A DNA stretch of 64,000 nt, from assembly GCA_963745035.1 (NCBI GenBank), contig CAVUVW010000011.1:96001-160000 (forward strand), written 5' to 3'. Source of the stretch: an uncultured delta proteobacterium (GTDB lineage: Bacteria > Desulfobacterota > Binatia > UBA9968). The notes below the pieces were generated by a model that was given only the letters and a program-made list of their open reading frames with translations, was not told the DNA's origin and ran no database searches. The first letter of the stretch is position 1; every line of letters begins with the position of its first letter. Of this stretch, positions 29,180 to 62,683 are shown one piece after another. The position numbers were made by a program, and so were the translations under genes.

Positions 29180-29332
29180 GTTCAAAACGTTCAATACGTT
29201 CAAACCGTTCAAGCCCTCACCCCGGATCACGTCCGGGGCAGGCTCTCGTTCCTCCCCCGCGACGCGGGGGAGGATGCAAGGAGGGGGTTTGAACGGAGCG
29301 TAGCGGTTGAACGGTTGGAACGTTTTGAACGC
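29180..29332. repeat. TTGAACG/CGTTCAA short-repeat intergenic palindrome
   Basis: Repeated TTCAAA.CGTTCAA arms and their complements around a GC-rich hairpin; relatives at ~3817-3850, 11549-11585 and 27758-27845. Confidence 0.6.
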
Positions 29333-32456: not shown

Positions 32457-32558
32457 AAATCCGGTGGTGCCATCAAAGCGCACGCGCGGGTCAAGTTGAA
32501 CCATACGAATACGGCGGATAGTCAACCTCTTTCACGGCTGCGGCGCCGCGCACATTGA

Positions 32559-32624
32559 GATTGAACTGAATTCTCCTACTACTCAGTCCTGTGGAATTTG
32601 ACTGTAGCGTCGTTCAGTTCAAAG
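32559..32624 (+). repeat. composite site R1 (full A+B, diverged)
   Basis: GATTGAACTGA ATTCTCCT ACTACTCAGTC ... ACTGT AGCGTCGT TCAGTTCAAAG. Confidence 0.9.
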
Positions 32625-32877
32625 CAACGAAATAATTTATTGCGAGGCCTCGCGCAATGGAGTGCTAGTAGGCCACTTGATTCGGAATCAAGTTCGTTCT
32701 GCGCTCAGGCGCGTCTGCGGGTCGTGGTGTCACAGCTCTAACGGGCTTTCGCCAGATTTCTTCGAGTCGCCCCTGGCAATGGTAGAGTCGGGGTTTGACA
32801 ACTTCCTGCTATCTAACCGATAGTGACTTAACTCGCCTCGATGCTGCACGGTAGACGGCACCTCGGGAAGCAACAAA

Positions 32878-33567: not shown

Positions 33568-33696
33568 GCCAAGCTATCACAGTGAAATCCTTCTGGAGCG
33601 CTCTTCGCGACTACTCAGTCACTCTGAAAAACTCCATCTCGATTAATGGGATACGGGCAGTGGAACCCAAATCGCCCACTTAACCCCGCCACCCGC

Positions 33697-33870
33697 TGTG
33701 CTAGTTTTGTGCTAGTTCAATCCGCAAACACAAGGAAGCACGAGCAGAGAAAAGCGGAGGCGCTCGTTTCCTGTTGGTTTCTGTGGATGTTTGTCGGTGA
33801 GCACCGACCACCACGAGACTCGAAATCAAGTTTACCCGGAAATGCTAATGACGGTCGAAATCCTTCCGCG
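33697..33870 (+). other. att-like remnant: TGTGCTAGTT direct repeat plus degenerate tRNA-Ser(CGA) 3' half
   Basis: TGTGCTAGTT x2 (33697-33717); GACTCGAAATCAAG anticodon loop at 33817-33830. Confidence 0.5.
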
Positions 33871-33884
33871 CTCGGGTGGGCTCT

Positions 33885-33914
33885 AATTGAATTAAATTCT
33901 CCACCAGTATTAGC
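33885..33914 (+). repeat. R2: core A half-site upstream of the recombinase
   Basis: AATTGAATTAA ATTCTCCA CCAGTATTAGC. Confidence 0.75.
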
Positions 33915-33972
33915 CGGGCGCTGAAACTGTCGTATCCTCCTCTCTCTAAAAACAAGGGAGAGGAGAAAAGTC

Positions 33973-34875
33973 ATGCGGCAGGTCATTCGACGATTTTTGA
34001 AGCACCTCCAAGCGGAGAAAAACGCAAGTCCATCCACCATAGAATCCTACCAATACGACCTAAACAAGTTCGACGACTATGTCGTTCATCGACTCGGAAA
34101 CAGGTTCTTACCAGGAGATATTTCCCGCGACCACATACGAGATTATCTTACGTGGCTCTCGGAAGCCATCAAAAGCCAAACGGTCCATTGGCTTGTGCAC
34201 GGGCTTTGGCAGCGATACGGTCGTTTTTTAAATACGCTCATCGAGCAGGGATGCTGAGAGACAATCCCACTGCAGATATTGCCCTTCCAAAAATCAGGAT
34301 GGGCGAAATCCGCGCTCTGTCACAGGATGAATGCGGTCGGCTTCCTGCGAGTTGTCGAGACGAATCGGAGTCCATTTAGAAAAATCAGGGACAGGGCAAT
34401 AATAGCGACATTCCTCTTAACCGGAGCGAGATTACGCGAAATTGTGCAGCTGGACAAAGCCGACATCGACCTTCATCAATCGACAGTACGGCTGCATCGT
34501 AAAGGCGGGGACATTAACATACTGCCTTTGGCTGACTCGGCAAAAACAGAACTGAAATTGTACCTAAAGCAGCGGCGGAAGAGGAGCCGCGCAAGGGCAC
34601 TATTTATATCTTGCCAGAATCGAAGAATATCACGTGGCGCGGTTTGGTATCTGGTGAAGAAATATTTCAAGAAATGCCGACTGAGAACGCGCGGCATGGG
34701 ACCACACGCTTTGCGGCATACCTTTGCGACACTGCTTTTAAGCCACGGAGAAAACCTCAGAGTCATTCAGAGTCTTATGAATCACAAAAGTCTGGCGACG
34801 ACAGCACGGTATTTGCCTTCGCGAAGCAAAGAGCTGGTAAAAGCCGTGAACGGTCTGAAGCTGTTGCGTGGCTAG
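33973..34875 (+). CDS. XerC/D-like tyrosine recombinase (two compensating frameshifts)
   Basis: SAM-like N-domain (SPSTIESYQYDL; RALAAIRSFFKY); catalytic LTGAR, RKGG, HALRH, NH, TARY; ~300 aa; no IntI-specific insertion. Confidence 0.92.
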
Positions 34876-34899
34876 AATGTGCCGTCGTTCAGTTCAATT
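34870..34899 (+). repeat. R3: core B half-site overlapping the recombinase stop codon
   Basis: GGCTAGAATGT GCCGTCGT TCAGTTCAATT. Confidence 0.85.
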
Positions 34900-35123
34900 C
34901 TGCAAGGTATCCTAAATTCGTCCCTTTTTTTCTGCATACAAAGCAACTTCTTGTGGTCCTATTAATGGAAAGCGACACGGCGAAAATAACAGAGAAGGGT
35001 GGGAGCCAACACATGTGCAGGAGATCCGTTTGCAAGACGATAGTTTCTATTTGAAGTTTGTTCAATATTAGACAGCAATCGTGACCTAGGAGTATATCGT
35101 GATGTCTCATACTGGAGGTCGTC

Positions 35124-35645
35124 ATGCGAACCATTTTTATTTTACCCTTCATATTCGCTGCTTGGATTGTGATGCCGACGGTTTCAGGCGCCCAAGTAGG
35201 AAAAGACGCTACGTCGCCGGGGCAGCTTGCACCGGGCGCTGTGCAAGGCGCACGCATGGAGAGTTGCAAGGCAAGTACCAAAACGGAAATCGCGTTGCTG
35301 TTTGACCGCTGGAATCAGTCGCTGCAGACAGGTGATCCGCGCAAGGTGGTCGCCAATTATGCGGAGCCTTCGATCCTCTTGCCCACCGTTTCAAACAAAC
35401 CACGTCTCACGCCAGCCGAGAAGGAGGATTACTTTCATCATTTCTTAGAGGACCGCCCTTCCGGCAAGATTGACTTGCGAAACGTTGAGCTTGGTTGCAA
35501 CACTGCGGTTGATGCAGGTCTTTACACCTTCACGTTTGCCAGGACAGGGGCAACGGTCAGCGGACGCTATACCTACACCTATCGCTGGAACGGTTCAGAA
35601 TGGTTAATTACAAGTCACCATTCTTCAGCGATGCCAGAGAAGTAG
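35124..35645 (+). CDS. SgcJ/EcaC/DUF4440 (NTF2-like) exported protein
   Basis: LFDRWNQSL, LLPTVS, DAGLYTF, WLITSHHSSAMPE. Confidence 0.85.
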   Translation: MRTIFILPFIFAAWIVMPTVSGAQVGKDATSPGQLAPGAVQGARMESCKASTKTEIALLFDRWNQSLQTGDPRKVVANYAEPSILLPTVSNKPRLTPAEKEDYFHHFLEDRPSGKIDLRNVELGCNTAVDAGLYTFTFARTGATVSGRYTYTYRWNGSEWLITSHHSSAMPEK

Positions 35646-36701: not shown

Positions 36702-37276
36702 ATGGCAAAGCCCTCGAAATTTGCTCACATCGTTTATCGCACGAGACGCTTCGAGGAGATGATTGCTTGGTACGAAAAAGTGTTCGAAGCAAGGGTGCAA
36801 TACAAAAATCCAGCCCTCGCATTTCTTACATATGACGATGAGCATCACCGTTTCGCTTTTGGCAACCTAGAAATGCTCGATCCATCCGGTAAGGCTCCCG
36901 GCGGCAAAACCGATATCGGTGTCGACCACGTGGCTTATACATACGCAAGCCTCCGCGATCTTGTCGATACTATACACGGCTCAAGAGGGAGGGCATCAGA
37001 CCTTACTGGCCCATTCGCCACGGTCCAACCCTGTCGCTCTACTACAAAGATCCTGACGGAAACCGAATCGAGTTTCAGGTCGATTGCTTTGCGACGGCCG
37101 ATGAGGCTAATGCATATATGCGAGGAGACGGTTTCTCTTCCAATCCTATCGGCGTGAACTTCGATCCAGATGAACTGGTAGAGGAATTTAAGAAAGGCGT
37201 GCCCGAGCAGCAGCTTCTCGCCCGACCCGAAGGACCACCGGCCTCAATCCCGCGCGAGCATGGTCTTGGCGCCTAA
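36702..37276 (+). CDS. VOC family (extradiol dioxygenase III-related) protein, integron cassette gene (frameshift ~36970)
   Basis: KFAHIVYRT, TYDDEHHR, YYKDPDGNRIEFQ; stop TAA lies within GCCTAAC. Confidence 0.85.
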
Positions 37277-37351
37277 CAGCGCCTTGTTGCCCGACACCTA
37301 TGTCTCGCCGCTTCGCGCTCAGCACGGCGCGGCAAAACGCGAACGTTACGC
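37271..37351 (+). other. integron attC site
   Basis: R'' GCCTAAC ... GCGGCAAAACGCGAAC GTTACGC R'; R'' is the exact complement of the upstream GTTAGGC. Confidence 0.8.
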
Positions 37352-37507: not shown

Positions 37508-37575
37508 GATTGAACTGAATTCTCCATCAACGTAATCTCGCGTGGCATCACATTGAAGCGTCGTTCAGTTCAATC
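37508..37575 (+). repeat. composite site R4 (full)
   Basis: GATTGAACTGA ATTCTCCA TCAACGTAATC TCGCGTGGCATCACATTGA AGCGTCGT TCAGTTCAATC. Confidence 0.95.
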
Positions 37576-37731
37576 TCAGGCTAAATTTGATCTTGCCATT
37601 TGATGAATACTGTCGAAGGCATCGCCGCGCGGAACGTCTGATATTCAGTCAGCGTGCTTCTCAGTTCGATGTCCGCTCGCCCTCTCATAAACGGCTTGCT
37701 TGATCGCCGCAGGTAGTCAGGGGGCCACCCA

Positions 37732-38543
37732 TCAGAAGGTTGCATGCGTGTCCTGCCATCCGAGTCCGTTCCAAAACACTGTTTCGAGCAATCGCCTTAT
37801 TTTCCGACTTGGAAGATTGCGAAAGATCCCATTGTTCGGCCCTACCATGCGGTAATCCAAATGAATCCGCCGGTAATTCCATTTGACACTGTCAAGCGGT
37901 CGCCATTCGCCAGGGGCCTCCTCGCCGAACAGCCCGCTTGAGCCGCCTTCAAACCGATGGTCGACGAAAATGCCCTCTCTTGCCGGGTTGGGGCATCGTT
38001 GCTCAGTAATAGTGAGTTGTGGGACAATCTTGAATCTCTTGTATCCCAGCTGATCGAGTAGATGCAGTTGCGTGAACGTGTCCTTGATCGACGTCGCGCT
38101 TGCCTCCACCGAAATATACTTCGGCTTCTCCTCTACGCTGAGCAGACCTTCGAGGCATACGGAATCCATTCCCTCGATATCTACTTTCATGTAGTACGGC
38201 ACACCGAATTTTAGGATGACGTCCTTGATCGTAGTCGCCTCGACCTTAACCGGATGACTCTTGAATCCTCGCGCCTCGTTTCTTTTGACCCATTCGGGGT
38301 TTGCTGTCCCCCATATGCTGACTTGCTCGTTGACAAAAAAATCGATGGTTCCGACGGTATGACTGATCGCCTTGTTGATGATCTGTAATTGGCCAGAGCC
38401 GATCGCTGCCGAGAATTTGTGTACACACTCCTCGCAGAGTTGGGCATTCGCCTCGATTCCGACGACCCGAAATCCTTTTCTGAGATAGAACTCGTGTCTT
38501 CTCCTGTATGCATTCCAACGTCATAGATTAAGTCGCCTGGCAT
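37732..38543 (-). CDS. FkbM family methyltransferase (frameshifted)
   Basis: LIYDVGMHTGEDT, PYYMKVDIEG, PKYISVE. Confidence 0.85.
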
Positions 38544-38651
38544 CTCGTAATCTCCAGGGTTATGAATACGCGCCGATCCGTCTCTCGAAAGATCGTCATC
38601 GCTTCGGGCACAACGGCGCTTTTCGACTCAACGATGGGTCCGAAACCCGTC

Positions 38652-38798
38652 TGTGCTGGTTTGTGCCAGAACCAGAGCAGAACAAACACCTCCCATTGTC
38701 TAACACCCAGGAGGTGAACATTAAAATAGTTGGATTTTTTCGTTGATGTTCCGCTCTGGTTTGGCCCCGACTTGGCTCTTAATCAGCGGGTCCGGGGT
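38652..38798 (+). other. att-like remnant: TGTGCYRG direct repeat plus tRNA-Lys(CTT) fragment
   Basis: TGTGCTGG/TGTGCCAG at 38652-38669; GGCTCTTAATCAGCGGGTCCGGGGT at 38774-38798. Confidence 0.6.
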
Positions 38799-38812
38799 GT
38801 TCTGGATGCTAG

Positions 38813-38880
38813 GATTGAATTGAATTCTCCACCAACGCAATCTCGCGCGGCATCACATTGAAGCGTCGTTCAGTTCAATC
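38813..38880 (+). repeat. composite site R5 (full)
   Basis: TAG GATTGAATTGA ATTCTCCA CCAACGCAATC ... TTGA AGCGTCGT TCAGTTCAATC CTA. Confidence 0.95.
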
Positions 38881-43307: not shown

Positions 43308-43337
43308 GATTGAACTGATTTCTCCATCAATTCAGGT
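43308..43337 (+). repeat. R6: solo core A
   Basis: GATTGAACTGA TTTCTCCA TCAATTCAGGT. Confidence 0.9.
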
Positions 43338-46221: not shown

Positions 46222-46251
46222 AACTGAATTGAATTCTCCGCCGGTACACTA
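46222..46251 (+). repeat. R7: degenerate solo core A
   Basis: AACTGAATTGA ATTCTCCG CCGGTACACTA. Confidence 0.55.
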
Positions 46252-46368
46252 GCGTTCTCCAGCCAAAGCGATTTGACTGATGGACCCGTCACAGGAGAAG
46301 TCGACCGGCGTTTACTACGACAGCTCACTTAACAGGTGGTGTCGATACTACGCTCAAAGGACACATCG

Positions 46369-46849: not shown

Positions 46850-46913
46850 GATTGAACTGATTTCTCCATCAAGCCAATCTTGCCAGATTAATGGTGCGTC
46901 GTTCAGTTCAATC
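46850..46913 (+). repeat. composite site R8 (full, short linker)
   Basis: GATTGAACTGA TTTCTCCA TCAAGCCAATC ... TGCGTCGT TCAGTTCAATC CTA. Confidence 0.92.
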
Positions 46914-47026
46914 CTACGTCCAAATTAGCCTTTTCTCCCTCGATGAATCGGTTTTCCTTCTGCCGTAAATAACACTTTTCTCAGCTTCCGTGTCCGTGAT
47001 AAGTCTTGTCACGAACGAGGCGCGAA

Positions 47027-48027
47027 ATGAAAAAACGAGTTGGTCATCAATCCTGGTTGCAGCCATGCTGCTCGCTGTTGCAGTCATAGCCGAGGCGCAG
47101 CAGCAGGCGAAGAAGGTACCTCGGATAGGGTATCTAGCATCGAGAGACCCGGCTACGGAGTCCACGCGGTCCGAGCCAGTTCGACTGGCTCTGCGGGAGC
47201 TTGGCTACATAGAAGGAAAGAACGTCGTCATCGACTACCGATATGCGGAGGGGAAGCGTGATCGCTACCCTGAGCTTCTGGCCGAACTGGTCCGTCTCAA
47301 GGTTGATGTCATCGTGGCAGCAGGAGGCGAGCCGACGGTCCGGGCGGCCATTAAAGCGACGAAGACGATTCCCATCGTAATGACAGGTGGTGGGGCCGAT
47401 CCTGTCGAGGCAGGCTATATCAAAAGCCTTGCCCGTCCCGGCGGCAACGTCACCGGCATTACGAACCTTGGCTTAGAGCTAGGCGGAAAACGGCTGGAGT
47501 TGCTCAAAGAAGCTCTTCCCAAGGTGGCCCGTGTCGCGGTTCTCTACGATCCGGCGGCAGGTTCAGACTTCCTACGCGAGGTGAATGAGGATCTCCCAAT
47601 CGCGGCACATGGGTTGGGTTTGGATATTCGGTCTTGGGAGGCACGAGCTGTGGGCGATTTCGAAAGGATATTCGCTGCGCTAAACAAGGAGCGCCCCGAT
47701 GGGCTCTATGTGACCGGGAGCCTGCTCTTTCATACTAACCGAAAACGGATTGTCGAGTTTGCGTTACAGAGCCGGTTACCGTCTGTATACAGTAGAAGAG
47801 AATATGTAGATGAAGGGGGGCTCATATACTATGGGGCGGACCTCGCGGACAGCTACCGGCGTGTCGCATATTACGTGGACAAAATTCTCAAAGGTACGAA
47901 GCCTGCGGACTTGCCTGTCGAACAACCTGCAAAGTTCGAGCTGGCGATCAATCTTAAAACCGCAAAGCAGATCGGTCTGACGATTCCACAAAAAGTGTTG
48001 TCGCGGGCGGATAAGGTGATCAAGTAA
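47027..48027 (+). CDS. ABC transporter substrate-binding protein (ABC_sub_bind, Trp/Tyr-type)
   Basis: LRELGYIEGKN, SLARPGGNVTG, GTKPADLPVEQP, RADKVIK*; start probably frameshifted in an A-run. Confidence 0.92.
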
Positions 48028-48044: not shown

Positions 48045-48104
48045 GATTGAACTGAATTCTCCATCTAATCAGTCTCGCCTTAGATCAACCTGAAGCGTCG
48101 TTCA
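48045..48104 (+). repeat. composite site R9 (last arm truncated)
   Basis: GATTGAACTGA ATTCTCCA TCTAATCAGTC ... GATCAACCTGA AGCGTCGT TCA. Confidence 0.9.
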
Positions 48105-48227
48105 TGTTGGAGCCGCATTCGAAAAAGCGAAGATAGAGCGTACCCAAGGGCTTCTCGTAAATGCTCGATTCCGATCGGGTTAAAGCCCTCCAATAAAGCA
48201 TTTTCTTCCTTCCCAAATTTTTTACAC

Positions 48228-48257
48228 GATCAAACTGAAGCGTCGTTTAGTTGAATT
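48228..48257 (+). repeat. R10: solo core B
   Basis: GATCAAACTGA AGCGTCGT TTAGTTGAATT. Confidence 0.85.
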
Positions 48258-49246: not shown

Positions 49247-49294
49247 GATTGAACTGAATTCTCCATCAACGCAATCTCGCCTGAAACACATTGA
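49247..49294 (+). repeat. R11: core A plus linker, truncated at spacer B
   Basis: GATTGAACTGA ATTCTCCA TCAACGCAATC TCGCCTGAAACACATTGA. Confidence 0.9.
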
Positions 49295-49589
49295 CGTTCG
49301 CATGTGTCCTCAGTGTAAGTCGCCGCACGTGCCGAAAGACCAGAGGCGGGAGCGCTAAGATGCCATTTCGCGTTATGCGGCGATGGGCCTTATACATGCG
49401 ACATTTCCCGTTCTCGCGAATGGAAAACTTAGATGTTTAGAACGCGCAGCGAGAGAGAGGAGGCAGAAAATGTGTGGACTAGAAATCTTTACTGATTAGA
49501 GTGCGGCTATCCCATGGATGGTTGGTGGTTACTCAGTACGTTTGGTCGGGACTTGGAATATCTGCCAAACAGGCATCAGTCGCCCGTGG

Positions 49590-50525: not shown

Positions 50526-50594
50526 GATTGAACTGCATTCTCCATCAACGCAATCTCGCGTGGCATCAACATTGAAGCGTCGTTCAGTTCAATC
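50526..50594 (+). repeat. composite site R12 (full)
   Basis: GATTGAACTGC ATTCTCCA TCAACGCAATC ... ATTGA AGCGTCGT TCAGTTCAATC. Confidence 0.95.
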
Positions 50595-51202
50595 TCAGGC
50601 TAAATCTGGTCCTCCCAGTCGACGAATATCTGTTGCCTTCGTATCGTAAATCCGAGTTTCGTAGCGATTCGAATTCAGCCAGATCTTCGAGGCTCATCGC
50701 CCAGGATAAACAAAGACTCTGCCGGGAAATCTCCCCTTGGGCTAAAACGTGGGATCAATACATCATCGCGCCGGATTATGATTATAATTTACTCGGTGGG
50801 TGCGCTGGGTGTAGAGTTCGTATATTGGTTGAATCTCTCTTTTAAGGGGAAACTTTATGGATAAAAATGCGCCTGGCCTTGATGTCGGAACTAAGTGCGG
50901 ACATTCGTGTACAAGACTAGATGGCCCCATTAAGAATGACTTTGGTTGTTGTATTTGTATGGGCGAGACGCAGTTGTGTACATCGTGCGAAAAGAGAAGA
51001 CTCTCGGAAGATCCCGTTGGGGAGAAGGACGAAAGTGTCAACACACCTGGAAGCCGAAAAGATTAAGGTTTAGGAACCGGCGTTGGATCGACGGCCTCGG
51101 CTAGAATAGCGCGAATCAACCGGATCTTTTGCCCGACAACTTTTTGAGATCGTAAGTTACGGTCTCGTGGCGCGGGCGGGTAAAGTGATGAAGTGACGCC
51201 AA

Positions 51203-51232
51203 GATTGAACTGTATTCTCCATCAATTCAATT
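51203..51232 (+). repeat. R13: solo core A
   Basis: GATTGAACTGT ATTCTCCA TCAATTCAATT. Confidence 0.9.
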
Positions 51233-51321
51233 TCACGTCGATGACCCTGGAGTGCTACGGTCCGTGCTGCCCGGCCCTTTTCCTGCGCGGGCGGACAGAG
51301 TGATAAAATAAGGAGCGCATT

Positions 51322-51984
51322 ATGATCGGTGCCAAGGCTCTGTTAGAAGGGATTCGGCAAGATTTGCAGCCCGTCACGGAACGGCTTCTGGGGCATCCTT
51401 ACGTGAAGGCTCTGGAGGAAGGGCAGATTGAGCGGGAGAAGCTCCGTCTTTTTGCCGGCGAGCAGTACAGCATCATAGCGAGTGATCTCAAAAGCGTCGC
51501 TTATTTGCTTAGCCGCTTCGGTAGCGCTCCGAGCCGTGATTTCTTTCTCGGAATCCTGCAGGGTGAAAGAGCTGCCTGGGATGGCTTGCTAACGTTCGTC
51601 AATGCCCTCGGCCTAAGCGAAGCTCAACTGAGCAAGCACGAGCCAGCGGCTGGCGCTCATGCCTACACCTGCTACATGGCGTGGCTTGCGCTCTATGCCT
51701 CTGACGCCGAGATTGCTGCTGCCTACCTGGTCAATTTTCCAGCGTGGGGTCAGAACTGTGGCCGCCTGAGCCGGATTCTGAAAGAGCGTTTCGGTATGGG
51801 CGAGAAGGAAGTCGCTTTTTTTGATCTCTTCGCCTCTCCTCCAACTACATTTGAAGCCGACGCTCTGAAAGTTATTCAGCAGGGACTCGATCGAGGCATC
51901 GAGCCGAGCCTGATCCAACGGGCGGCTCGGTTACTCCAGGCCTACGAGCTCATGTATTGGGATACCCTCTACGGGGCGTCTTAG
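51322..51984 (+). CDS. TenA/THI-4 family protein
   Basis: HPYVKAL..G, AYTCYMAWLA, YELMYWD. Confidence 0.85.
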   Translation: MIGAKALLEGIRQDLQPVTERLLGHPYVKALEEGQIEREKLRLFAGEQYSIIASDLKSVAYLLSRFGSAPSRDFFLGILQGERAAWDGLLTFVNALGLSEAQLSKHEPAAGAHAYTCYMAWLALYASDAEIAAAYLVNFPAWGQNCGRLSRILKERFGMGEKEVAFFDLFASPPTTFEADALKVIQQGLDRGIEPSLIQRAARLLQAYELMYWDTLYGAS

Positions 51985-52045
51985 CCGTGCTGGCAGGGCG
52001 GATAAAGTGATCGAGTGAGCGAAGAAAACCAAGCGGCAATGCTAG

Positions 52046-52113
52046 GATTGAACTGAATTCTCCATCAAACCAATCTTACGTCTCATCCAACTGAAGCGTC
52101 GTTCAGTTCAATC
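52046..52113 (+). repeat. composite site R14 (full)
   Basis: TAG GATTGAACTGA ATTCTCCA TCAAACCAATC TTACGTCTCATCCAACTGA AGCGTCGT TCAGTTCAATC CTA. Confidence 0.95.
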
Positions 52114-52264
52114 CTACATGGCTGTTTTTGTGATGGTCTGGCCGAATAGGCCGCCGATTCGTTAGGCAGATAAGCTGCCGTGCCGGTCGGCTTTTTAGCG
52201 AAAAACTCTAACGTTGACAATCCAGGTGAGCTGATGGATATTCCACGCAATTTGAACTTTTATT

Positions 52265-53294: not shown

Positions 53295-53351
53295 GTCTAA
53301 CTTTCCGCTTCAAGCCGCCGCATGACGCGCGGGCTGAGCGCGGCGTTAGCG
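53295..53351 (+). other. integron attC site
   Basis: R'' GTCTAAC (complement of upstream GTTAGAC) ... GCTGAGCGCGGC GTTAGCG. Confidence 0.7.
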
Positions 53352-53355
53352 CCAG

Positions 53356-53423
53356 GATTGAACTGAATTCTCCATCAAACCAATCTTACGTCTCATCCAA
53401 CACAAGCGTCGTTCAGTTCAATA
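53356..53423 (+). repeat. composite site R15 (full; island right end)
   Basis: GATTGAACTGA ATTCTCCA TCAAACCAATC TTACGTCTCATCCAACACA AGCGTCGT TCAGTTCAATA. Confidence 0.95.
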
Positions 53424-58961: not shown

Positions 58962-60149
58962 ATGACCGTGGAAAAATCTCCGCCGCTTTGGACGCCGGCA
59001 TTTGTCCTGCTGTGCGGCGCGCAGTTTTTTGGCTCGGCGCAGCACGCCCTGCTGCAACCCACTTTTCCGCTTTACATCACCGCGCTCGGAGGAACACCGT
59101 TTCAGGTCGGCTTGGTGCTTGCCTGCTTCGCGGTGACAAGCGTCGTCTTTCGTCCGCTTATCGGCGGCTGGGCCGACCAATGGTCCGAGGCCGGAGTGTC
59201 GGTTTGCGGCCTGTCACTGCTGTCGCTCGCGGTGCTGATCTGTTTCATCCCGCATCCCGAAGCGACCATGTTCGCCAATGCGCTGCGCGGCATCGGCTGG
59301 GCGGCGATGAGCGCCGCCGGTTATTCCTTGCTCGCGCTGAGCGCGCCGCCGCACCGCCGCGGCGAGGCATCAGGTTACTATAGCGGCGTGCAGGCGAGCG
59401 GCACAATCCTGCTTTCCCGCTGTCGCGCTGTGGCTCATCGACGCGCCTTTCGGCGGTTTCGATGTGGTTTTCACCGCAGCCATTGCTTTCGCTGCGCTCG
59501 GCGCCGCCATTAGCGCGCAACTCTTCCGGCGCGGCGCCTAAGAAAATTCACCAGAGCCGAATCGTCGCGGAGACGGGGCCTTGGTGGCAGGAAATTTTGA
59601 ATGTCCTGGATCGCGAGATCATTCTCGCCTCGGTGCTTTCGTTCGGCTCCCATGTGACTTTCCCTGCGGTGGCGAGTTTTTTGGTGCTCTATGCGCGCGA
59701 GCTCGGCATCGACAACATCGGTTGGTTCTACGTCGTAAGCGGCATCACCAGCATCCTCTGCTCGTCCGCTGTTGGGCAAGGTTTCCGACAGGATCGGCCG
59801 GCGCCGCGCCTTGCTCGCGTGTTTTGTTCTCCAAACTATCGCACTACTGACGCTCGCCTATGCTTCCGAGCTCATCGCTTTGATGATTTCAGGCGCGCTC
59901 TATATGGTGGGATTGGCCATGAGCAGCTCGACCACCTTGGCCATCGCCATGGAGCAGGCCAAACCCGAACGACGAGGCGAGCCATGGCGACGTTCTCCAT
60001 CGCCTTGCCTCTAAGCAACGGCGTCGGCGCGCTTGATCTGCGGCAGTTTGGTGCAATCGATCGGCTTTTTTTGGATGTATCTTGTCGCCGCGGGCATTGC
60101 CGCCGGCGGTTTGCTGGTTACGATGGCCAACCGTGCGCGCCTGAAGTAG
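58962..60149 (+). CDS. MFS transporter (multiple frameshifts)
   Basis: LWTPAFVLL, RPLIGGWAD, RRGEASGYY. Confidence 0.8.
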
Positions 60150-60303
60150 AGGAGAAAGAATTGCGAGGGCTAATCACCCAATGGCTTAGAGAAAGTTTGT
60201 CCGCTTCGCCAGCACTTTTCTCGATCGTGCTCGTGCGACGTGATCGTGGTCGAGTCCTGACACGAACACGGTCACGAACACGGTGGCCTTCAAGACCGCG
60301 CCC

Positions 60304-61490
60304 ATGACCACCGAGCGCTCCGACACCCTCTGGAACAAAACTTTCCTTCTGCTCTGTAGCGCGCAGTTTCTGGGCTATGCGCAGCATGCCATGCTCTCCC
60401 CGGTTCTGCCTCTCTACGTCACCCAGCTCGGCGGCTCGCCCTTTGTCGTCGGCATGGTGCTCGCGTGCTTCGCAGCGTCAAGCGTCATTGTCCGTCCTTT
60501 AGTCGGTCATTGGTGCGATCGCTGGAGCGAAGCGAAGGTCATGATCTCCGGACTGGTTTTTCAGGGCGCGAGCATTCTTATCTGCTTTATTCCCTTCGTC
60601 AGCATGGCGATGCTCGCCAATGGCCTGCGTGGCATTGGATGGGGCGGGCTCAACACCGGCGGCTACTCGCTGCTCGCCCATATCGCGCCCGAGTCACGCC
60701 GCGGCGAGGCCTCCGGTCTTTACAGCGGCGTGCAAAGCTCGTCGTCGATCTTGTTTCCCGCCTTCGCTCTCTGGTTGCTGCACGCTTCGTTCGGCGGCTT
60801 CGGAGTGGTGTTCGTCGCGACCGCGCTATTTTCTCTCGCTGGCGCAGTGCTCGGCGCGGTCATGACCCTCCAGATGCCGAAGATCGCGCGCTCGAGCGCC
60901 GCTCTCGATCCGGCGCGCCGCTGGTGGCGCGAGATTTTCCGTTTCATCGAGCCGGAGATCTTACTGCCGTCGGTGATGCTCGCCTGGCTGAATATTTCCC
61001 TCCCTTCCATCACCAACTTCAGCGTGCTCTATGCGCAAGAGCTCGGCATCATCGACTTCGGACCGTTTTTTATTGTCATCGGCTTCACGAGCTTGCTCGG
61101 CCGGCCCATGCTCGGGCGGCTTTCCGACAAAATCGGCCGCGAATCTATCGGTCGGCGTCGGTTTCGGTCTGCAACTCGTAAGCCTGCTCCTGATCGCCTT
61201 CGTGTCCAATCTCGTCGGCATGATCGTGTGCGGCACGCTCTACATGCTCGGCAACGCGATCGGCAGCTCGACGACCCTGGCGCTGGCAGTCGAGCGCGCC
61301 GCATCCGCAGCGCCGCGGCAAGCAAATGGCGAGTTTCTCCGTCGCCTATCCGTTGAGCTACGGCATCGGTTCATTGATCGTCGGCAGCGCGGTGGAAGCG
61401 GCGGGTTATGCGGGCATGTTCTACATCATGGCCGCGATTCAGGCATTGGGCTTGATCTTCGTCGTAATCAAAGCGGACAGACTGCGCTGA
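60304..61490 (+). CDS. MFS transporter (frameshifted)
   Basis: LWNKTFLLL, RRGEASG, GRLSDKIGR. Confidence 0.8.
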
Positions 61491-61501
61491 GAAAACCAGC
61501 G

Positions 61502-62683
61502 ATGACGAGCGATCGCCAAGATTCGATCTGGACCCGCGGCTTTTCGCTCCTCTGCCTCGCCGAATTTCTCGGCTACGCGCAGCACTTCATTCTCCAGCCC
61601 ACCTTTCCGCTCTATATCACTCAACTGGGCGGCTCACCGTTTCACGTTGGTTTGGTAATCGCATCCTTCGGCGTTGCCAGCGTGATATCCCGCCCTATCC
61701 TCGGCTATTGGGCGGATCGGTGGAGCGTCACCGGGATGATGATCCTGGGCTTGTGTTTGCAGACACTGAGCATTTCGCTTTGCTTCCTGCCATTCGTCGC
61801 CGCGCTGATGCTCGCCAATGGCTTGCGCGGCATCGGCTGGTCGGGAATGAATACCGGCGGCTACACCTTGCTCGCGACGATTGCGCCCGCAGCGCGCCGC
61901 GGCGAAGCGTCGGGATACTACGGAGGCGTGCAATCCAGCGCGACGATTCTGTTTCCGGCCGTAGCGCTTTGGATCATCGATGCTCCGTTCGGCGGCTTCG
62001 ATGCGACATTTCTCTTCGCCATGTCGCTGGTGCTGCTCGGCGCCGGCGCGGCGATCGCCTTATCGCGCGCCGTTCCCAAGGCGCCTCGTCAATCCGTCAC
62101 GGCATCCTCCGAACCGTGGTGGCGCGAAATTTTGAACGTATTCGATCGCCATATCTTGCTCGCCGCAACCTTGATGTTCACCTTGCATGTCTCGCTTCCC
62201 TGTTTCTCGAGCTTCGTCGTGCTCTATGCCCGCGAGTTGGCGATCGATCACTTCGGCTGGTACTTCGTTGCAACCGGAGTCACCAGCATGCTGGCGCGCC
62301 CGCTTCTTGGTCGGGTCTCGGATAAGATCGGCGCCGGCCGCTCGCTCATCGTCGCCTACGTACTCGAATCCGCCGCGCTGCTGATGATGCCGTTCGCCGG
62401 CAATCTTGCCGGTGTCATGTTGGGCGGAGCGCTTTACTTCATGGGATCGGCGATCGGCGGAGCGAGAATTCTCGCGCTGGCGATGGAACAAGCGCCAGCC
62501 GAAAGGCGCGGCCGCGCCATGGCGAGTTTCTCCGTGGCGTTTCCTTTGAGCAACGGCACCGGAGCGATGCTGAGCGGCCTGGTCGTCGATCTTGCCGGCT
62601 ATAACTGGATGTACATCACCGCGGCTCTACCCTGCGCCGTTGGACTTCTCCTCACTGCGAAATACTGGAAGAGCTTGAGATAG
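61502..62683 (+). CDS. MFS transporter
   Basis: IWTRGFSLL, RRGEASGYY, GRVSDKIG. Confidence 0.9.
   Translation: MTSDRQDSIWTRGFSLLCLAEFLGYAQHFILQPTFPLYITQLGGSPFHVGLVIASFGVASVISRPILGYWADRWSVTGMMILGLCLQTLSISLCFLPFVAALMLANGLRGIGWSGMNTGGYTLLATIAPAARRGEASGYYGGVQSSATILFPAVALWIIDAPFGGFDATFLFAMSLVLLGAGAAIALSRAVPKAPRQSVTASSEPWWREILNVFDRHILLAATLMFTLHVSLPCFSSFVVLYARELAIDHFGWYFVATGVTSMLARPLLGRVSDKIGAGRSLIVAYVLESAALLMMPFAGNLAGVMLGGALYFMGSAIGGARILALAMEQAPAERRGRAMASFSVAFPLSNGTGAMLSGLVVDLAGYNWMYITAALPCAVGLLLTAKYWKSLR

Follow-up and report, generated by a model that had tools for sequence, protein, structure and literature searches.

The window analyzed here is a stretch of 64,000 nucleotides from the genome of an uncultured member of the Binatia (contig CAVUVW010000011.1, positions 96,001 to 160,000 of the forward strand). 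Our subject is a Xer-family tyrosine recombinase gene (xer) that lies in this window between the two halves of a split repeat. The core of the left half, or A arm, at 33885-33903 is placed 88 nt 5' of the ATG at 33973. At the other end of the gene, the TAG stop codon at 34873-34875 is followed by 5 nt (AATGT) and then by the right half, or B arm, at 34881-34899. Elsewhere in the window the same two arms form full repeat copies of about 68 nt, here called E, in which A and B are bridged by a hairpin of 25 to 30 nt. The A core was matched at eight places in the window and the B core at seven (3 mismatches or fewer), all on the plus strand, while shuffled sequences gave expectations of 0 and 0.06, respectively. 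The arms that flank xer each differ from the array consensus at three positions. An earlier note on this DNA had put the A core 88 bp before the start codon, which agrees exactly, and the B core right after the TAG stop, which agrees with a gap of 5 nt. Its description of an approximately 1-kb gene standing in place of the linker between A and B holds for the placement, but not for one open frame, as the gene reads as three pieces.

A recombinase gene between the arms of a split repeat

The three frame pieces of the gene span 33973-34257, 34152-34379, and 34279-34875. The frame is lost near 34164, where 4 nt are missing, and regained near 34344, where there is 1 extra nt, so that the -4 and +1 shifts compensate. 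In related contigs from public sequencing runs, the GTCG after 34164 is present and one base at 34344 is absent; none of the public runs covers the window's own sequence over 33888-34216, for which only contigs of relatives were found. The frameshifts at 34164 and 34344 may be assembly errors. It is probable that the copy in this genome is a pseudogene, and with the gene inactivated here, any xer activity in this genome would be past or supplied in trans. The gene is present as a single copy in this 7.4-Mb assembly of 28 contigs. The two frameshifts and the lack of a second copy speak against the suggestion in the earlier note that the unit of A arm, recombinase gene, and B arm (A-xer-B) is autonomous.

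Two Pfam domains were recovered from the frame pieces, Phage_int_SAM_1 (PF02899; 5.7e-10) and Phage_integrase (PF00589; 3.8e-30). The pieces align end to end with relatives of 301 amino acids (aa), including the catalytic residues and the native C terminus NGLKLLRG. Residues R154, H246, R249, H272, and Y281 are almost invariant in the family alignment, and the pieces in the window hold ARLRE, HALRHTF, and TTARYL. With a catalytic PF00589 domain and an N-terminal SAM-like domain, the gene is by its sequence a member of the tyrosine recombinase superfamily. An intact relative (P0036) scored 205.4 bits with the NCBIfam equivalog model for XerD (cut-off 329.6), 204.1 with that for XerC (335.15), and 199.1 with that for XerA (220). 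The integron-integrase model TIGR02249 (cut-off 265 bits), which takes in the extra domain peculiar to IntI, gave 72 bits with P0036 and 49.9 bits with the piece from the window, and the solved structure closest to P0036 is XerD 1a0p (E value 9.8e-39). Judged by these profile scores, the recombinase is Xer-like and not IntI. It would not qualify as a housekeeping XerC, XerD, or XerA, since its scores are under the cut-offs and there is no conserved single copy across the relatives.

Between the A arm and the gene lies a structured leader of the xer mRNA with two tiers of pairing. In the first, CTGTCGTAT (33927-33935) pairs with ATGCGGCAG (33973-33981), covering the start codon, and in the second, an anti-Shine-Dalgarno (anti-SD) stretch (33936-33946) pairs with the SD sequence GGGAGAGGAG (33956-33965). 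The RNA fold has an energy of -29.5 kcal/mol (z score of -5.0), and 0 of 200 shuffles were equally stable. The two-tier fold is also found at three other loci (L029, L032, and L012), the leader sequence is kept across loci, and the homology between the two locus classes described below begins exactly at the leader element. The leader is predicted to hide the ribosome site and the start codon and would thus block translation. The earlier note raised the possibility of autoregulation through site A in the likely promoter region; a simple scan of 33600-35150 gave no sigma-70-like promoter upstream of xer and no terminator at the arms. We considered a GTCGT target duplication at both junctions and rejected it, as the left copy is accounted for by leader RNA pairing of CTGTCGTAT with ATGCGACAG. 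Left-end remnants of xer units occur at 46222 of the window and at 86619 of contig C26 of the same genome. At the latter place (C26:86619-86900), an A arm and a xer-type leader with its anti-SD/SD hairpin are followed by a short unrelated open reading frame (ORF) and no recombinase; therefore, the leader module can exist without xer.

The nested layout was compared over homologous loci, 6 from species-representative genomes and 75 from metagenome contigs. A B arm lies 9 to 10 nt past the stop codon in 57 of the 70 assessable loci, an A arm is found 81 to 88 nt ahead of the start codon in 28 of 54, and 25 of 47 have the two together. The 13 loci that lack B are mostly distant homologues with 41 to 55% identity. 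The distant homologues L156 to L166 have no A or B motif, and no convincing alternative inverted repeats were seen around the four that were scanned for them (L156, L157, L160, and L165). The expectation of the earlier note that A and B would flank homologous genes is borne out in the proportions given, but not for the distant homologues. The flank counts exclude a chance juxtaposition of two half-decayed repeats.

The ends of the unit are sharp, in that the sequence outside the arms varies by locus, with approximately 22 distinct left contexts as counted by eye. Among left contexts that include an A arm, 31 in all, 13 are ABC-gene 3' ends, 4 are R'-like, and 14 are of other kinds. The arms are still recognizable where the proteins are only 73 to 78% identical (L143, L153, and L168), and L153 has similar derived sequence in both arms. 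Across the 81 loci, 64 A arms, 82 B arms, and 28 ABC-gene ends are all on the xer strand, and none is flipped. One contig labeled Candidatus Binatia carries two complete A-xer-B units 1.1 kb apart, with a methyltransferase cassette between them. At the level of the family, the nested arrangement is real and widespread in soil data. The earlier note was right that the enzyme is physically tied to the site, as A-xer-B is a discrete inherited unit across many unrelated flanking contexts. We also considered whether a left arm is hidden in the 3' coding part of xer (GTGAACGGTCTGAAG), so that the gene would have a compact site to itself; the consensus fold of 23 loci gave no B-arm pairing and no covariation, and the candidate was rejected.

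A second class of loci (class II) consists of 16 that have no nearby A arm and share a common upstream sequence; all 14 others that were compared match L032. This upstream sequence is 645 to 943 nt long and holds a reverse 131-aa ORF, for which no family was found in NCBIfam, Pfam, or PHROGs. The class II block begins right after an A-type arm approximately 720 nt upstream, and in L032 that arm resembles a degenerate miniature E. Among the 48 loci with the start of the gene on the contig, the frame is intact in 27 (295 to 312 aa), runs off the contig in 3, and is interrupted in 18. Decayed genes include that of L033, with many frameshifts, and that of L031, with an in-frame deletion of 27 aa. 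The protein family counts 321 database proteins at E values of 1e-30 or less, mostly of 301 aa and mostly from short soil-metagenome contigs. The family looks functional because of the number of these proteins, their near-invariant catalytic residues, the frames that are intact, and the conserved fold of the leader. A truncated remnant of a related recombinase gene is common to L024 (2228-2480, approximately residues 193 to 280) and L027 (1-120, residues 239 to 280); these contigs are binned to a Thaumarchaeota and a Deltaproteobacteria metagenome-assembled genome, which suggests either mis-binning or transfer.

Repeat E and its cassette array

Alignment of 22 copies of E gave an outer stem of 11 to 14 bp (ATTGAACTGAA / TTCAGTTCAAT), a conserved and unpaired internal loop of 7 by 7 nt (TTCTCCA opposite AGCGTCG), and a variable inner stem of approximately 10 pairs. 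The inner stem is 65% paired and has compensatory changes at 5 of the 10 pairs, while the outer boxes ATTGAAC ... GTTCAAT are (nearly) invariant. Over the whole structure 78.4% of the cells pair, compared with at most 46.9% when the partners are slid. Covariation was 0.127 versus 0.105 in shuffles, and 12 of 500 shuffles reach the score, so that its support is modest. DNA folds of E gave z scores of -3.2 to -4.2 for four of six strands. No match to Rfam at the gathering score was found in the whole window.

In its build, E corresponds to the attC sites of integrons and of orphan attC clusters, the arrays without an adjacent integrase (CALINs; Cury et al. 2016, PMC4889954): it is an imperfect palindrome with AAC/GTT outer boxes, an unpaired spacer, and a variable inner hairpin, and many copies stand just 3' of co-oriented ORFs. 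Indeed, the array at 32558-53423 is entirely on the plus strand. E differs from attC in its longer outer stem and in that the inner hairpin gives way, in one class of E, to a gene for a recombinase other than IntI. It also often begins 10 to 12 nt past the canonical attC crossover point, a spacing that is unexplained by ordinary cassette exchange, and in this genome the array does not lie beside intI and attI. We propose from this anatomy that E is a hairpin-type recombination site of attC-like build.

The features of the array are collected in Table 1. The stretch from 32558 to 53423 is an integron-type cassette array without an adjacent integrase, and the genes between its E copies encode MgtC, DUF4440, glyoxalases, a GH65-HAD fusion, TenA, a methyltransferase, and a response regulator. 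The true IntI of this genome lies on contig C6 (42134-43036) and scores 445 bits with TIGR02249. Within the 20 kb examined around it there is no recognizable cassette array or E copy, and a few E halves lie 35 kb off. Genome-wide, seven canonical-type sites fold directly 5' of A arms, with the R' box mostly ending 4 to 5 nt before E. One canonical attC of 93 nt occurs in three copies, two in this genome (G000) and one in the relative G003. These are homologous up to GTCG|TTA, the integron crossover point, and diverge exactly there; E comes next in both G000 copies and not in G003.

Table 1. Features of the split recombinase unit and of the array around it, in order of position in the window
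Feature	Position	Strand	Sequence or basis
Full E copy, first of array	32558..32625	+	
Left (A) arm of split repeat	33885..33906, core AATTGAATTAAATTCTCCA 33885-33903	+	AATTGAATTAAATTCTCCACCA; repeat family D4
Structured 5' leader of recombinase mRNA	33927..33981	+	RNA fold, conservation across loci
Xer-family tyrosine recombinase gene, disrupted	33973..34875 (903 nt)	+	Pfam domains on separate frame pieces
Right (B) arm of split repeat	34881..34899	+	GCCGTCGTTCAGTTCAATT; repeat family D6
Canonical-type attC, 81 nt	37271..37351	+	GCCTAAC ... GTTACGC
Full E copy, GTTAGCC just 5' of A arm, no matching attC folded there	37508..37575	+	
Full E copy	38813..38880	+	
Solo A arm	43308..43330	+	
Remnant of second xer-type left end: A arm and xer-type centre, no gene	46222..46262	+	CCGCCGGTACACTAGCG; compared by eye with xer-unit leaders
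Full E copy, then ABC substrate-binding gene 46990-48027	46850..46913	+	
E copy complete to GCGTCGTTCA (48045-48104), about 125 nt of other sequence, solo B arm (48229-48257)	48045..48257	+	
Truncated E copy: A arm and centre to CACATTGA, then other sequence	49247..49295	+	
Full E copy	50526..50594	+	
Solo A arm behind remnant of ABC substrate-binding gene 3' end	51203..51232	+	Repeat families D1, D11
Full E copy	52046..52113	+	
Canonical integron attC, 57 nt	53295..53351	+	GTCTAAC ... GTTAGCG
Full E copy, last of array, begins 5 nt past the canonical attC	53356..53423	+	

The gene most often met in front of E encodes an ABC substrate-binding protein (PF04392). In this genome 13 of 39 A arms follow its stop codon (counted by eye), and 14 of its 42 3' ends have an E within 60 nt, with no E at the tandem core paralogues on contigs C14 and C17. 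These paralogues form large tandem families (C17:177000-204000 and C14:387000-413000), and at least 42 gene ends of the genome share the same 21-nt 3' terminus, with E only behind those in cassette arrays.

Blocks of the array are duplicated on other contigs of the genome. Window positions 37508-38836 correspond to C26:82181-83489, and 51168-52115 to C13:1123646-1124598, with 95% and 97% identity, and the boundaries of the blocks are at E arms. Homology between duplicated blocks breaks off at arm edges, which every copy of E conserves, so that exchange by IntI at G|TT of the R' box and other routes are not told apart by these break-points. In the C26 copies, approximately 19 nt right after GCG.CG are gone, which deletes the outer B arm. 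Three solo A arms, at 43330 onward of the window, C17:2826, and C13:1956440, are followed by similar sequence (...GGAGCGC.GCGCTCGGTGCTTCCCCGGCCTCTCCAGACTGGGAG), a candidate for a further element that splits E copies at the center.

The earlier note had taken the 68-bp copies for empty versions of A-xer-B, and this did not hold up. The copies have a central hairpin of their own with compensatory changes, none of 30 distinct full copies has a xer-type center, and they sit in integron-type arrays beside canonical attC sites. They are also numerous in relatives where xer DNA was not found. B motifs (1 mismatch or fewer) number 28 in this genome, 51 in G018, 8 each in G017 and G024, and 0 to 4 in each of the others. 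A close xer homologue is present in only 1 of 40 relatives (G033, 69% identity), on a contig with no exact A arm, and other matches are at 44% or less. These tallies include an unpublished genome, G005, and no statement rests on that genome alone. A search for DNA of the xer unit in G018, G017, G024, G012, and G014 gave no match, and in G018, which is 80% complete, there was no xer protein above 40% identity and no IntI at E values of 1e-60 or less. The arrays beside IntI in G014 have canonical GCCTAAC...GTTAGGC sites and not E. Two of five other xer-carrying genomes have an IntI that exceeds the cut-off, and in G047 the IntI gene is placed 5 kb upstream of a pair of xer units. Synteny of the left flank across the genus yielded no empty site for the whole array, the flank being too rearranged.

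A candidate module of enzyme and site, and its alternatives

The anatomy of the unit, its conservation, the fold of E, and the family of the enzyme, as documented above, lead us to propose that the recombinase and a cognate hairpin site travel as one module, a reading to which we give slightly less than an even chance. A-xer-B would be an E-type site whose inner hairpin gave way to a Xer-family gene with its own translation-blocking leader. The substrate of the enzyme would be the pair of arms that flanks its own gene, and the enzyme would recognize these arms and the conserved loop strands, either as a duplex or as a folded single strand. Enzyme and site would move together through cassette arrays as one module, and the plain E copies would be further sites of the same type, acted on by the enzyme in trans. 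The recurrence of the nesting in dozens of soil-metagenome contigs suggests that enzyme and repeat probably work together. A cognate pair is favored because the ends are sharp, the contexts are many, the arms are kept down to 73% protein identity, and similar derived sequence is seen in both arms of L153. It is also favored because the xer unit is without the inner stem of E and so would make a poor IntI-type fold, with no other factor to keep the arms conserved.

Several points weigh against this proposal. Binding or cutting of the arms by the enzyme, and the reaction that would ensue, are themselves proposed steps. E is abundant where xer was not found, as in G018 with its 51 B motifs, a genome that is only 80% complete. 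The class II gene comes with a B arm but without an A arm belonging to it, and many xer copies are decayed (18 of the 45 that are not cut by a contig end) while the E arms stay conserved. Moreover, because canonical attC sites stand in the same arrays, a true IntI is present in the genome, and cassette copies diverge at G|TT, IntI could service E too.

Taken to its end, that last point would make xer a passenger, which is the main rival reading. E would be an ordinary attC-type site served by IntI only, in one loop of which a Xer-like gene landed; the interrupted site would since have been carried with cassettes, mostly those of ABC substrate-binding genes, and the enzyme would be inert on the arms. 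We regard this as somewhat unlikely, although much fits it. E is attC-like and always in co-oriented arrays with canonical attC sites, an IntI is present both in this genome and in G047, there 5 kb ahead of the pair of xer units, and E is common in genomes where xer was not found. Likewise, 13 of the 31 units with an A arm are behind the 3' end of an ABC substrate-binding gene, as would be the case for an ORF and its site in one cassette. However, with the inner stem gone, only the outer arms and loop strands are left and would make a poor IntI fold, yet the arms are conserved despite deep divergence of the protein. Exchange of the IntI type accounts for a variable right flank only, whereas the left contexts, too, change directly at the edge of the arm, and the 3' coding end of xer holds no cryptic left arm. 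A role of E at the level of RNA, which we hold to be improbable, would make it a transcribed hairpin between cassettes (a terminator, processing site, or stability element) and the xer arms elements of the 5' and 3' untranslated regions or operators for autoregulation, with no part in DNA exchange. The compensatory changes in the fold and the position of E between co-oriented ORFs suit such a role, as do the elaborate translational leader that the xer mRNA already has and the promoter or operator position of the A arm. Against it, Rfam gave no match at the gathering score, and no sigma-70-like promoter or terminator was seen at the arms. The strict conservation of the unpaired TTCTCC / GCGTCG strands and of the AAC/GTT boxes suits recognition of DNA by a protein better, and E shares its arrays with canonical attC sites.

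Two further explanations treat the arms as ends of a mobile or invertible segment. If A-xer-B were an autonomous transposon bounded by terminal inverted repeats, and if the 68-nt copies were its internal-deletion derivatives (miniature inverted-repeat transposable elements), moved by cut-and-paste, then the common terminal inverted repeats, the sharp ends, and the ratio of many E per one or two xer units would all be explained. This is highly improbable in view of the E center, which is conserved, covarying, and unrelated to the xer unit, and of the orientation of all copies with the array (64 A and 82 B arms on the plus strand and none on the minus strand in the 81 loci). There is no target-site duplication, the AGG/CCT flanks merely lengthening the inverted repeat, and xer was not found in the E-rich relatives searched. 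We also judge a 68-bp duplex too short for synapsis of both ends by a tyrosine recombinase. An invertible switch, in which the enclosed recombinase flips the segment between the inverted arms, would recall hin of Salmonella, where a segment of about 1 kb with a recombinase gene likewise lies between inverted repeats. We give it almost no credence, as none of the 81 loci is flipped relative to neighboring arms and ABC-gene ends; with every neighbor on the xer strand, this candidate is already contradicted.

The proposal of a module of enzyme and site has parallels in known systems. XerC and XerD act on the folded single-stranded attP of phage CTX, and IntI acts on attC. The proposed substrate of the enzyme studied here resembles that of CTX and XerCD in that a Xer-family enzyme meets a hairpin whose two paired arms enclose an unpaired center; it differs in that the xer unit has a Xer-like gene of its own, no dif, and sites in arrays. 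Xer-dependent integrative elements, by comparison, borrow the housekeeping Xer of the host and integrate at dif. RAYTs are HUH Y1 transposases whose REPs are dispersed in both orientations. They too present a single-copy recombinase or transposase gene bracketed by a short palindromic repeat of which many further copies are scattered through the genome, but E is found in co-oriented cassette arrays and the type of enzyme differs. IntI and the xer enzyme are both tyrosine recombinases tied to cassette arrays and hairpin sites; unlike IntI, the xer enzyme is without the IntI signature, and its gene lies inside the site, co-oriented with the cassettes, and not beside attI. Genes inside attC-type sites are known from group IIC-attC introns and IS1111-attC elements, which passages of PMC3001079 describe as monophyletic, niche-specialized lineages with a reverse transcriptase or a DEDD transposase, inserted antisense near the 5' end of the site. 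In contrast to these, as far as those passages portray them, xer is sense oriented and takes the place of the center of the site, and its product shares a superfamily with the integrase acting on such sites. Searches of full-text articles, supplements aside, turned up no account of a recombinase gene nested within a repeat of the attC type.

Integron-type arrays are a main means for bacteria to store and rearrange accessory genes, and the present case touches on how arrays with no integrase close by are kept active and on the origin of new types of site. A conserved Xer-like lineage in an attC-like hairpin is a candidate second enzyme for such sites, and A-xer-B is a natural example of an enzyme packaged in its own presumed substrate. 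One could go further and see a second, non-IntI cassette system, in which a dedicated Xer-type recombinase moves cassettes by way of attC-like E hairpins and has its own gene packaged in one of them. This stronger version is unlikely in our judgment. If it were true, the enzyme would be a mobile, cassette-like unit that could seed or service arrays without an integron integrase, and it would help to explain CALINs. Should the enzyme prove inert on the arms, the unit would still join group IIC-attC introns and IS1111-attC elements as a new type of resident in attC-type sites.

Other repeats in and around the array

Other repeated sequences were seen near the array. A stretch of approximately 140 nt (33693-33831) that lies between MgtC and the xer unit recurs at C10:33007 and C14:973035 of the same genome and in G044, G014, G043, and G018 with 74 to 85% identity; it has no Rfam family at the gathering score. 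To the left of the array, 29182-29328 is a palindromic element of 147 nt, the ends of which are runs of 9-bp repeats with GTTCAA/TTGAAC, and every genome of the genus that was searched has many copies of it. Similar clusters of 9-bp repeats lie near IntI genes in G000 (L009, 2112-2945), G014 (L106 and L107), and G015 (L108). On the 3' side of the array, 59268-62566 comprises three tandem paralogous segments of approximately 1.2 to 1.3 kb, with blocks that are 65 to 78% identical.

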